Shown here: piece by piece, positions 28,910-37,287 of the stretch
Layout: each line of letters begins with the position of its first letter
How positions within the stretch are numbered: the first letter of the stretch is position 1
Origin: Sedimentisphaerales bacterium
GTDB taxonomy: Bacteria > Planctomycetota > Phycisphaerae > Sedimentisphaerales > SM23-30
Assembly: GCA_963666285.1 (NCBI GenBank)
Contig: OY762711.1
Length of the DNA stretch: 64,000 nt
Strand: one strand, 5' to 3'
Made by a program: the position numbers and the translations under genes
Notes under the pieces: generated by a model
What the model saw: the letters and a program-made list of their open reading frames with translations, nothing else
What the model was told of the DNA's origin: nothing
The model's database searches: none

Positions 28910-29413
28910 GTGATGAAAATAACAGAAAATAAAATTTTAGAGATTTTGCTCAAGAGTCGTATGAAACTTACTGCTTATATACGTACTATTGTAGGGGATT
29001 TTCATTGTGCAGAGGATGTTTTCCAGGATGTTTCCATGAAAGCAATTCGCTCAAGTGAACAATTTAAAGATATAAAACATCTCGAGCGTTGGCTTTGGGT
29101 TGTATGCCGCAACGATGCGTTAATTAAGCAGAGAGAACAAAAGAAATTACCTGTTTTTATAGACAAAGATATATTGGATTCAATTCATGATGAGTTCCAG
29201 AAAACAAACCTTTATGATTTAAATGATACAGAAATAAAATTAGAGAAATGTTTAGGTAAGTTAACAGGTTTCTCCAGAAAACTGATCATGTTGAGATATC
29301 GTAAGAACTTAACTGGGCAAAAGCTAGCAAAAGAGCTGAATAGAAAAGTAGAGTCGATCTATGTAGCTTTGAGCAGGACTCATAAGACTTTACGAGAATG
29401 CATGAAGAGGTAA
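28910..29413 (+). CDS. ECF sigma-70 factor
   Basis: AEDVFQDV region 2, WL....RN, C-terminal HTH LMLRY...SIYVALSR...LRECM. Confidence 0.88.
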   Translation: MMKITENKILEILLKSRMKLTAYIRTIVGDFHCAEDVFQDVSMKAIRSSEQFKDIKHLERWLWVVCRNDALIKQREQKKLPVFIDKDILDSIHDEFQKTNLYDLNDTEIKLEKCLGKLTGFSRKLIMLRYRKNLTGQKLAKELNRKVESIYVALSRTHKTLRECMKR

Positions 29414-29436
29414 TTAGCCAAAATGCTGGATAAAGT

Positions 29437-31170
29437 ATGAACCAGAAAAACGACAAAGAAATAAAAGACAAATTGGAAGAATTTGATTCACTTGTATATG
29501 CCTACTTTGATGGTATGGTAGATATACAGCAAATGGATGTCTTAAAACAATATTTGAGAGAAAAGTCATATGTTCGCAGGTTGGTAGATCTTTGTAGGCA
29601 CGACCAGTTGATTTATGAGTTAATGTCTTATGATGAACAGACGTTAGGTGATATTGAAACAAAAGTCTTTAGTGAAATCAAAGACGAAGGTAGTGTTTTA
29701 AAGGATTTAATTGCGTTAGAGCAGAATTCACCTGCAATTGAAATCCATAGCGAAGAGAAAAATATTGAAATCATATCAGAAATAGTTGAAAAAAAACAAT
29801 CTACGGGGAAATTTATTAAGTTGTATAATCGGATGATTTATATAGCTGCTGTATTTATGGTCATATTTATCGTTTATGCTAATGTTTTCCCCCCGCAATT
29901 ATCTGAAGAAGTAGCAACAGTGGTTGATCAATTGGATGTTAAGTGGGATATTTCTTCAGCTAAGCTAAAAAATGGTGAAAGAATACTAACTAATCAGTTG
30001 CCTTATAAGGTTGAGAAAGGGATAGTTAAGTTTTCTTATGATGAAGGAGTCGATGTTGTTATAGAAGGGCCAGCAGAGTTTACCGTAGAAAAGAAAGGTA
30101 TAACAATATCCAAAGGTCTTTTGTACTCGTATGTTTCAGAAGTTGGTCAAGGATTTACTGTAGATACTCCCAATAATCGGTTTATTGACCATGGCACAGA
30201 ATTTGGTGTTTATGTTGATCAAAATGCAACATCAGAGCTTCATGTTTATACTGGTGCAGTGCAATATTACTCCGGAATAAAAGGAGCTCCTAAGGCCAGT
30301 AAGACAATTAGAGCAAATAATGCTAGAAGGTTTGATGCAGATTCTGGGCAAATTCAAAATATACGAGTTGAAGAGAATTTCTTTGCCAGAGATGTAAATT
30401 CAAAAACAGGTATAATATGGCGTGGTCAGGATATAGATTTGGCAGATATTGTTGGCGGTGGTACTGGCTTCGGAGGTGGCGAGCTGGAAAGCGGTATTGA
30501 CGTTGAAGATGGTCAGTGGAAGAATAAGGAAGTGCTGTATAGACAAAACTTGAGTGTCGGATGGATAAGATATAGTGACAATAAATATAATAAGGTTCCA
30601 ACTATAGATTATATTGATGGTGTATTTGTTCCATATGATGCTAATGGTCCGGTTCAACTTTCATCAAAAGGGCATAAATATTCTGGTTTTCATGTAGGTA
30701 GTAACGAGCACTGGAACAATATTTGCTTTGGTGCCTGGCATGAATCAAGTCATGCACCTAAGCATAATTTGAGCTCTGAAGGTATAACTTATGGTTTAGA
30801 TAGTGATACGGCTGCAATTACAATACATTCCAATCAGGGAATTACTTTTGACTTAGATGCGATCAGGAAAAATATACCTGAAAGAAGAATCTCTAAATTT
30901 ACAACAAAAGTAGCGATTTCAGAATCGATATTATTTTTTGGCAAGGAAGACGGTGTCGAAGAAAATCCTTCAAAGGTTGACTTCTGGTGTTTTGTCGATG
31001 GCGAGCTAAGAGATAAGCAAGAAGGTATTACATATAGAGACGGGCTGGTTGAAGTTGAAATAGTCCTGGATGACAACGAAAGATATTTAACGCTCGTTGT
31101 AACAGAATCTGATGATAAATGTAGTTTTGACTGGGCTTTTCTTGCAAGACCGGTATTGGTTGTAGAATAA
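29437..31170 (+). CDS. FecR-like anti-sigma factor with C-terminal NPCBM/NEW2-like domain
   Basis: Single TM; VVIEGPAEF, GFTVDTP, DHGTEFGV, HVYTGAV; C-terminal ITFDLDAIR...FVDG...YLTLVVT. Confidence 0.82.
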   Translation: MNQKNDKEIKDKLEEFDSLVYAYFDGMVDIQQMDVLKQYLREKSYVRRLVDLCRHDQLIYELMSYDEQTLGDIETKVFSEIKDEGSVLKDLIALEQNSPAIEIHSEEKNIEIISEIVEKKQSTGKFIKLYNRMIYIAAVFMVIFIVYANVFPPQLSEEVATVVDQLDVKWDISSAKLKNGERILTNQLPYKVEKGIVKFSYDEGVDVVIEGPAEFTVEKKGITISKGLLYSYVSEVGQGFTVDTPNNRFIDHGTEFGVYVDQNATSELHVYTGAVQYYSGIKGAPKASKTIRANNARRFDADSGQIQNIRVEENFFARDVNSKTGIIWRGQDIDLADIVGGGTGFGGGELESGIDVEDGQWKNKEVLYRQNLSVGWIRYSDNKYNKVPTIDYIDGVFVPYDANGPVQLSSKGHKYSGFHVGSNEHWNNICFGAWHESSHAPKHNLSSEGITYGLDSDTAAITIHSNQGITFDLDAIRKNIPERRISKFTTKVAISESILFFGKEDGVEENPSKVDFWCFVDGELRDKQEGITYRDGLVEVEIVLDDNERYLTLVVTESDDKCSFDWAFLARPVLVVE

Positions 31171-31250
31171 AATAGCTCGATTTCAAGTATTCGTCAAATA
31201 TGTTTAGGCAGTATGGTTTCTTAATAATGAATAAAAGAAGAGAATGGTAT

Positions 31251-32785
31251 ATGAGAGCGCCAAGCGAAGCTAATGTAGTCAAGCCGGCCAATCCGGCATG
31301 GGTAAGGGCTAGCCACCCGCCCATTACAGCACCGGGCGTGCAGAGAGGTAACGAACTGTACGAAGCCCCGGGAAAGGAGTTTGTCAGCCACAACGCAAGT
31401 GAAGGTGTTGAGCCCCGAAATTATTCCTTATCGCATCCGGGCCAGGGTTTTCATATGCCTGAAGCCAATATCGATATATGCGAAATACGGCGAGCATCTA
31501 TCGACGAGCCGGGGTCTGAGTCCGTAGCGGGCAAACGAACTGACTGCATTGGAACTTGGGAGAACCGAAGTGCTCCGAAAGGAAGCGGCCAAGGAGCTGA
31601 AACCGTGACGCGGCCGTATGGCATTTTGGTAGTCGGACTGACTCATAGTAGAGGAGTAAACAGGGTAATGCCTGTTGAGTTTCGAAGTTTGAGGCACTCG
31701 AAGGGGTCAGCATTAATGTGTAAAGGCGAAACAGGATATTGGCCAGGCACTGAACTGGAAGAAACCATGAACGTTCCACAGCGTCTTCTATCGGATACTT
31801 CTACAAGGCACATTACTTTGCCTTATGTAGCCGTCAAAGTGAGCATTAATGAAGAGCCGGATGAGGGAAATCTTCAAGTCCGGTTCAGTGAGGGGCATGC
31901 GTTTCCTTGCACAAAATATAATGAAACTCAGAATTTGTTAAATTAATGAAAGGAGGCGACATGCCTACTCGACAAAAAAGAGGTTTTACATTAATTGAAT
32001 TGCTTGTTGTTATTTCCATTATTGCTTTGCTGGTCAGCATCCTTATGCCAGCACTGACTCGCGCCAAACAGCAGGCCCAGTTTGCCGTATGTAAGGCAAA
32101 TTTGAGACAGTATGGTATTGCTATGAATTTATATCTCCAGGATAGCGATGACAGATTCCCGGAAGCTCATACAAGTCTCTTTCGGGGGATAAGGTCTGAA
32201 TGTCAGTGGCATGATGCCCGCAATGATTATGAAGCGGATACAAGTGTTCGTGGCCCGATGTTAAAATATCTAAGTGATATGGATGTGCATTTATGCCCGA
32301 CTTTTATGCGTTTTGCAGCACGAGTGGGAGAACAGCATCTCGAGCCTTTTGGTAGAACTTGTAGTGTACCGATGGATCCTCAATATAGTTATAGTCAGAA
32401 TAAATACCTGGGCGGGACAAACTCAAATGGGGAATATGTTGGAGTTTCCAGGCTAACTCAGATAAAGAACCCGGGAGAGGTTATTTTCTTTGTTGAAGAA
32501 ACTATGTGGATCATTCCCGGTCAGTCATCGCATATGCTTAACGATACCTGTTTCTGGTCCCGCCATCCACACGATTCGGTAGGATACTTGGGTGATAGTA
32601 TTGCGATGTATCATAATACTACCAAGAAGGATGAGGGTAACGGTAACACTGTATTCGCCGATGGCCATGTTGATTTGAGTAATGTATTTGAAGAATTTGC
32701 TTATTCCTGGGGTAAAGTAACTAGCAGTTTCAAGAAGTCATGGCCAAAGGGTAAAATACCAGAGATCTGTCCATATCAAAATTGA
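31251..32785 (+). CDS. prepilin-type (H-X9-DG) protein split by the intron: join(31251..31254,31974..32785); alternative unspliced start ATG 31961
   Basis: Spliced [18 protein letters not shown]; unspliced MPTRQKRG|FTLIE; CKANL, GNTVFADGHV. Confidence 0.85.
31255..31973 (+). mobile_element. ORF-less group II intron, subgroup IIB
   Basis: 5' GAGCG; EBS1 TCATAT (31451-31456) complementary to exon IBS1 ATATGA (31249-31254); DV GAGCCGGATGAGGGAAATCTTCAAGTCCGGTTC (31854-31886); DVI with bulged A31967 and 3' end CCTACTCGAC; no RT ORF. Confidence 0.9.
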
Positions 32786-37213: not shown

Positions 37214-37287
37214 GGCGACGTAGCCAAGTGGCCTAAGGCAACGGTTTGCAAAACCGTCATTCGTGGGTTCAAATCCCACCGTCGCCT
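37214..37287 (+). tRNA. tRNA-Cys (GCA)
   Basis: Acceptor GGCGACG/CGTCGCC, anticodon arm ACGGT-TTGCAAA-ACCGT, T-loop GGTTCAAATCC, discriminator U; CCA not encoded. Confidence 0.95.

Follow-up and report, generated by a model that had tools for sequence, protein, structure and literature searches.

Bacterial group II introns usually limit the harm they do by avoiding genes. A specialised IIB1 (CL1) clade has been described at initiation and termination codons, with Avi.groEL and EcKTE56.groEL as examples (Michel et al. 2007, via PMC12584367 and PMC4028801), and in the relevant sections of these two papers it carries an insertion of 300 to 700 nt in the 5'-subterminal subdomain Ia. The TeI3 introns of T. 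elongatus are the model for ORF-less copies driven by a related maturase (as presented in part of PMC2882425), and the ORF-less dnaN introns of Trichodesmium are another related-maturase case (as summarised in a section of PMC12584367). For C.te.I1 of Clostridium tetani, unspliced RNA is given as 75 to 95% of the transcripts in an excerpt of PMC3919590, and for DIVa of Ll.LtrB, maturase binding is reported to oppose translation (cited in a passage of PMC3851717). The excerpts of PMC4424553 and PMC8919778 made no mention of start-codon targeting under the terms searched.

An ORF-less intron behind a host start codon

The window analysed here is a stretch of 64,000 nucleotides from a Sedimentisphaerales bacterium (contig OY762711.1). 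On its + strand, positions 31255 to 31973 hold an ORF-less group II intron of 719 nt, with Rfam matches to a D1-D4 core (RF02005; 31288-31524; 112.2 bits) and to DV-DVI (RF00029; 31852-31973; 52.3 bits), the catalytic domain V lying at 31854-31886 and the bulged branch-point A at 31967; the ends at 31255 and 31973 were fixed by comparing eight copies in differing flanks. These eight copies of the 719-nt intron in the genome are 99.4 to 100% identical and vary at only three positions, so that they give no test of selection, and all eight are inserted directly after ATG-A. The same genome holds a diverged 648-nt copy, fragments, and two full RT-encoding relatives of 1929 nt that are 85% identical to the ORF-less intron over D1-D3. 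With no RT ORF in its 719 nt and an intact related RT in the genome, the intron has the composition of an ORF-less element served in trans.

IBS1 (31249-31254) takes in the host ATG (31251-31253) and the first base of codon 2, and EBS1 (31451-31456) is complementary to this start-codon site, with 5 or 6 of 6 positions paired at all eight genomic copies. Since EBS1 reads the ATG-A site, the intron parts the host start from its coding sequence; the in-frame ATGs upstream at 31200 and 31227 could serve as host start too. EBS2 was predicted at 31421-31426 from its register and a permutation test: the IBS2 register -8 to -12 was recovered across 56 members, and the cognate pairing of EBS2 with the exon beat 5000 of 5000 permutations. 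IBS2 lies at 31242-31247 (5' exon -13 to -8). A role of EBS2 as a dedicated anti-Shine-Dalgarno sequence was rejected, as no more than 16 of 41 combine a Shine-Dalgarno (SD) motif with -4 kcal/mol or lower; IBS2 simply overlaps the native SD/spacer zone. When the intron is removed in silico, frames of 86 to >500 codons result at seven of the eight sites, and the remaining copy precedes a frame of only 5 codons. Contigs from four of seven sequencing runs contain no spliced joint, and the one run made from RNA has relatives only. In the window, the 3' exon (31974-32785) encodes a prepilin-type N-terminal cleavage/methylation protein (PF07963, TIGR02532) of 271 amino acids after splicing. Directly upstream and on the same strand (28910-31170) are genes for an ECF sigma factor and a FecR-domain/NPCBM protein, and their control may extend to transcription of the intron; a tRNA gene with the anticodon GCA is located at 37214-37287.

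Elsewhere in the genome (G000), the two full RT-encoding copies (C1:910721-912649, termed L043, and C1:5395339-5397267) have a retargeted EBS1, lie away from genuine gene starts and carry stop codons in the host frame; the ORF-less family, unlike them, keeps the anti-start EBS1. At C1:3630865-3634538, two copies share a strand and are separated by about 2.2 kb, both opening genes with a signal-peptide-like N-terminus. A distant RT fragment (37% identity) is found at C1:3875451-3876053, and a 3' and a 5' fragment of the intron family at C1:4809701-4809982 and C1:5748538-5748587, respectively.

Relatives were gathered by RT homology, by a DV pattern that did not require the ATG, and by genome searches; a metagenome scan gave at least 116 matches, 80 of them with DNA. 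Fourteen loci without a called 3' end, the duplicate L060 and the spurious DV match L058 were left out, and the distant loci L071 to L139, except L120, were used as outgroup only. Named hosts include MAGs of Planctomycetota, Lentisphaerota and Ignavibacteriota, and searches of viral contigs gave 0 and 2 matches, in which no 5' end was visible. A relative also resides on the plasmid pKAP298 of Caedibacter, a gammaproteobacterial endosymbiont (L256:2840-2960); it is truncated at the 5' side and keeps the anti-SD strand, the SD and an ATG at -13. The RT of the lineage has 443 amino acids, with nothing beyond the maturase region. Scored against the group II maturases in the PDB, it gave its lowest score to 6me0_C (562 amino acids), presumably the CL-class protein of T. 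elongatus. Compared with references of classes D, g1, g2 and g3 (one or two per class, taken from part of PMC3552965), it is 26 to 32% identical, groups with none of them, and forms a clade of its own with support of 100/99.

A second Shine-Dalgarno sequence and ATG in domain VI

The linker between DV and DVI, the basal 5' strand and the anti-SD strand of DVI together occupy 31887-31912, the spare SD 31949-31956, and the spare ATG 31961-31963, which is 13 nt from the 3' end of the intron and in frame with the 3' exon. The original prediction had 31900-31908 pairing with 31950-31958 and 31893-31899 with 31960-31966, so that the folded domain hides both SD and ATG. Both helices were found at these positions, the first with two U-G wobbles, and the predicted fold does occlude the SD and the start: the region 31850-31990 folds with z = -5.68 (0 of 200 shuffles were as stable), and when the whole intron is folded with its flanks the SD helix has a pair probability of about 1.0 and the basal pair one of 0.82. 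A DVI loop of about 41 nt is present as described, but it is partly paired in the predicted fold and not long for the lineage, whose DVIs measure 33 to 126 nt (38 of 67 have 121 to 126 nt). The spare SD is strong, with a duplex of -11.9 kcal/mol versus -2.9 to -3.9 kcal/mol for the native site, and its spacer to the ATG is short (4 nt). Opening of the ribosome footprint is predicted to cost about 21.4 kcal/mol at 37°C and 11.9 kcal/mol at 65°C, and this copy is near the top of the 67 DVIs, with a lineage median of 8.8 kcal/mol. By these predicted energies the DVI stem is too stable to open unaided, and binding of a ribosome and formation of the branch helix should exclude each other sterically.

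Both SD and ATG turned out to be conserved in sister introns, with compensatory changes, as the original prediction needed them to be. Among the matches listed, the 99 loci with a called 3' end have an ATG at -13 in 79 cases, at -16 in 10 and at neither position in 10 (67, 9 and 10, respectively, for the 86 distinct DVIs). Outside this genome, 38 of the 43 ATG-13 members with both ends known follow an ATG, one more a GTG and one a TTG; none of nine members without the spare ATG follows an ATG. The frame of the ATG is open for at least 60 codons in 31 of 48 members, compared with 3 and 6 for the other two frames, and the anti-start motif in EBS1 is present in 35 of 41 ATG-13 members versus 0 of 8 without ATG. 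The SD helix covaries: across 38 long DVIs, two-sided changes were seen at 6 of 8 pairs and 0 of 500 shuffles reached the score, a test that is inflated by related sequences. Cognate SD/anti-SD duplexes average -9.3 kcal/mol versus -6.8 kcal/mol (61 strand pairs; 0 of 10,000 permutations), and strand swaps between nearest neighbours favour the cognate duplex 27 to 7, with 27 ties. The strand facing the spare ATG varies by wobble in 16 of 67 DVIs while the ATG holds, a count that is partly circular because the class is defined by the ATG. On this comparison, the hidden SD and the in-frame ATG are traits of the lineage.

In a D1-D3 tree with a weak backbone, the members lacking the ATG fall among ATG members as two clades with support and two lone branches, and SD and ATG were lost in several separate branches that left start codons; in most of the ATG-less members the codon is ACG, compensated on the facing strand, the SD is weak or missing, and the target is a different one. 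A long DVI that lacks both SD and ATG occurs in nine relatives at a greater distance. In the DVIs of 121 to 126 nt there is a conserved, branched insert that has a loop of the GAAA type and, internally, a motif resembling a tetraloop receptor; the insert also occurs in distant relatives without SD/ATG. A more distant group (L155, L158, L160, L162, L182, L183, L190, L201, L203 and L212) combines an SD-like element with an ATG in frame at -16 and mostly does not precede long frames; this class was set aside, with a long downstream frame in only 2 of 9 and a preceding start codon in 0 of 2. L161 and L200 share an identical 5' exon and a 1644-nt intron and differ in their 3' exons, which reflects either recombination between copies or an assembly artefact.

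Open frames across the ribozyme and a putative ribosome relay

The frame that begins at the host ATG is free of stops for 231 codons (31251-31946), running through D1-DV into the DVI loop, where it ends at a TAA (31944-31946) that lies 17 nt before the spare ATG and overlaps an in-frame ATG at 31946. Shuffles of this frame contain 11 stops on average, and 0 of 20,000 were stop-free. The ORF-less sister L265, which is 80% identical, arrives at the same place in two steps: its host frame stops at codon 31 (+90), right before an SD, with an ATG 17 nt on (+107) inside a D1 hairpin, and the second frame, 195 codons long, terminates at a TGA in the homologous place within DVI, where the distance to the spare ATG is likewise 17 nt. 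Judged by sequence, L265 is an independent test of frame continuity up to the DVI stop. The homologous site in the window copy (31341-31360) has lost the relay stop and the ATG, so that the two ORFs are fused; L066 and L210 fused theirs too, each of the three on a separate branch. A single unbroken frame (no stop in the first 140 codons) was rejected as a lineage trait, being found in only 3 of 45 members, and the general form is a two-ORF relay. The D1 stop at +90 is present in 31 of 47 ATG-13 members versus 1 of 9 ATG-less ones, and an SD with ATG or GTG at +107 in 36 of 47 versus 1 of 9. In the window copy, in L265 and in the D1 relay, an upstream ORF ends beside an occluded SD and start, 17 nt away in each case, which is the layout of translational coupling at an SD-occluding stem.

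Of the 36 RT members at start codons, 22 have a chain of one or two ORFs that leads from the host ATG and ends no more than 30 nt from the RT start, where shuffles predict 0.42; such chains were also found in 2 of 4 recently retargeted RT members, in none of 9 others and in none of 6 members that lack the ATG. A complete chain to DVI is seen for two of the eight ORF-less members located at start codons, and the strict chain test was failed by 14 of the 36 RT members and 6 of the 8 ORF-less members. Among RT members, no convincing chain leads from the RT stop to DVI; chains from a DV ATG to DVI occur in 37 of 65 versus 18.7 expected, a count that requires no SD and is alike in other classes. 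Variation is flat over the codon positions (0.122/0.126/0.139), indicating that openness, not a protein, is what is kept, and a conserved protein from the intron body was rejected since there is neither a codon-position bias nor a Pfam family matched by that body. Of nine members that do not sit at a start codon, six still have the frame locally poor in stops. The tightly locked sisters L156 and L170 have a D2 insertion with stops, yet long open stretches cross D3-DVI, and the 648-nt genomic sister has stops as well. Under a neutral model, 28% of lineages would still be open at 10% divergence, a figure that precedes the counting of indels, ORF1 and the +90/+107 signals, and the members are related (median 77% identity in this region), so their counts are not independent.

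We propose that the intron makes up for the loss of the host start with the second SD and the in-frame ATG that its DVI encloses. As long as the RNA is unspliced, ribosomes that began at the host ATG would translate the stop-free intron body, keep the intron unfolded and unwind DVI from its 5' strand; they would stop at the TAA (31944-31946) and restart at the ATG at 31961 (or the one at 31946) on the strong spare SD. The product would be a prepilin with a slightly longer leader (274 amino acids from the spare ATG, beginning with MPTRQ). Prepilin peptidase removes the leader; the G|F cleavage site is present in both forms, and the longer leader falls inside the range spanned by 49 motif matches across the genome. 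If a maturase acting in trans folds the ribozyme first, DVI would close, the spare site would be silent and splicing would restore the native start. Such dependence on maturase is plausible because the genome contains two full RT-encoding relatives. In RT-encoding members of the lineage, the same read-through would feed the maturase gene and create a feedback loop. Ribosomes crossing the ribozyme should hinder splicing, and continuous translation would guard against polarity. To the joint reading that this is a non-autonomous member of a start-codon-homing group II lineage and that its stop-free body carries host ribosomes to DVI, where the spare SD and ATG restart the gene, we assign a probability of roughly 0.6.

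The mutually exclusive states of the original prediction stand on this reading, but both states should yield in-frame host protein, so that the arrangement would be a fail-safe with maturase feedback more than an on/off switch. Its thermosensor fared poorly. Occlusion of the SD is the usual layout of RNA thermometers, and the SD helix does hold its two U-G wobbles side by side; however, the SD is predicted to be 0.94 paired at 37°C, 0.90 at 65°C and 0.75 at 85°C, with the ATG 0.99 paired at 65°C, so that the helix would not melt in the physiological range. Stem stability spans about 3 to 23 kcal/mol over the lineage, one outlier aside, and host protein would come from either state. A thermometer or other condition-sensing switch is very improbable on these grounds, and translation through the intron body is probably the likelier opener of DVI than heat. 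Nor did the internal promoter gain ground, which was to yield transcripts with a free RBS. A perfect TATAAT is indeed present at 31917-31922 and in three genomic DVI variants, and outward promoters are known inside IIC-attC introns (in the part of PMC3001079 that treats them). However, the motif has no -35, is expected by chance with P = 0.097 in shuffles of the DVI loop, occurs in only 4 of 67 distinct lineage DVIs (the three from this genome and 1 of 64 from elsewhere), and is missing from the sister L265, which shares the SD and the stop. A scan for sigma-70-type sites found none on the + strand of 31100-32100, and an outward promoter of the IIC-attC type was rejected because most members have no conserved -35/-10. 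The TATAAT is probably due to chance, and a functional promoter here would surprise us greatly.

Two further explanations dispense with read-through. The SD and ATG could be free during transcription, before DVI closes, if the linker and basal 5' strand first pair with the anti-SD strand in an alternative local hairpin (-7.0 kcal/mol in this copy). Position 31887 in the linker is A in four of the eight genomic copies and T in the other four, the T adding a pair (-7.6 versus -7.0 kcal/mol). The hairpin is predicted in 58 of 67 DVIs, where it cuts the opening cost by a median of 9.2 kcal/mol (median cost, 8.8), 95% of its cells are pairable versus 36 to 79% in slid controls, and it is absent from nine distant relatives without SD/ATG; this route may be the main one in weakly locked RT members. 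On the other hand, it does not covary (453 of 500 shuffles reach the score, with one strand fixed by the search pattern), any anti-SD automatically pairs with the G-rich basal strand, and 5 of 6 members without ATG have the hairpin as well. In this copy it would give only 5.8 of the about 21.3 kcal/mol needed, and we consider a purely co-transcriptional opening unlikely. Alternatively, the spare site might be a passive inherited relic here, almost always closed, with expression depending on splicing alone and the open frame a matter of chance or a leftover. The opening cost, among the highest of all the DVIs, would fit such a relic, as would the rarity of single unbroken frames and the near-identity of the eight copies, which bars a selection test. 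Against it, L265 reaches the same stop by a different route, none of the shuffles was stop-free, and the SD and ATG were lost where branches moved away from start codons. A relic is thus rather improbable, and read-through with restart is the reading that we favour.

For this widespread lineage as a whole, we see an even chance that a ribosome relay is built into the ribozyme, in which ribosomes captured at start codons would pass stations hidden in intron stems (the D1 hairpin, the maturase start and DVI) and be returned to the host gene. Translation would compete with splicing and the maturase level would decide; the result would be a retroelement that regulates itself, is neutral to its host and has a catalytic RNA under additional selection as a stop-free message. 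It seems that the lineage enters many unrelated genes at the spot where they are most vulnerable and undoes the harm by translation signals borne on the ribozyme. If the relay works, a catalytic RNA would be doubly constrained as a message, a simple system would be at hand for measuring ribosome transit against ribozyme folding, and the maturase might be expressed and shut off without a strong RBS of its own. In practical terms, genes annotated to start with M(S/P)TR(Q/H) after a DV-DVI may really begin ahead of a hidden intron, and a gene could be expressed with or without intron removal.

Relation to known group II introns

We found no description of the lineage or the relay in the literature searched; subscription papers and bioRxiv supplements lay mostly outside its scope, so a prior description is possible. 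Like the IIB1/CL1 clade, as portrayed in the pertinent sections of PMC12584367 and PMC4028801, the lineage homes to translation signals of host genes, and the present intron sits at the kind of site by which that clade is known, a start or stop codon or a position adjoining one. Unlike it, the lineage has no insertion of 300 to 700 nt (the D1 model begins 33 nt after the 5' end) and occupies many unrelated host genes; a replacement SD/ATG or a relay is not mentioned for the clade in those sections. With TeI3 and the Trichodesmium dnaN introns, as described in the excerpts cited above, the intron shares the lack of an ORF, multiple copies, good EBS/IBS pairing and RT-encoding relatives in the genome, and it differs from them in being fixed on the start codons of ordinary genes and in its spare RBS in DVI. 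For F3 copies of TeI3, insertion does take place between a pair of start codons, although these belong to the RT ORF (PMC2882425, same part). C.te.I1 is likewise ORF-less and its D5/6 holds annotated start codons of downstream ORFs; it is, unlike the lineage, class B-like, confined to one domesticated locus and alternatively spliced, and the excerpt of PMC3919590 does not mention start-codon homing or covariation of an SD helix.

In Ll.LtrB, too, an RBS lies within intron structure; there, according to the passage cited above, it is in DIV and serves the maturase only. IIC-attC introns resemble the present one in supplying an expression signal to the downstream gene, which in the part of PMC3001079 concerned is a conserved promoter, whereas in the present lineage it is the translation signal that is conserved and not the promoter. 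Finally, as in the organellar "core creep" described in a section of PMC8393795, a frame from the upstream exon crosses the ribozyme core and uses host translation signals; in contrast to core creep, the bacterial stop-SD-ATG relay would be a coupling and not a fusion, and it would return ribosomes to the host gene.
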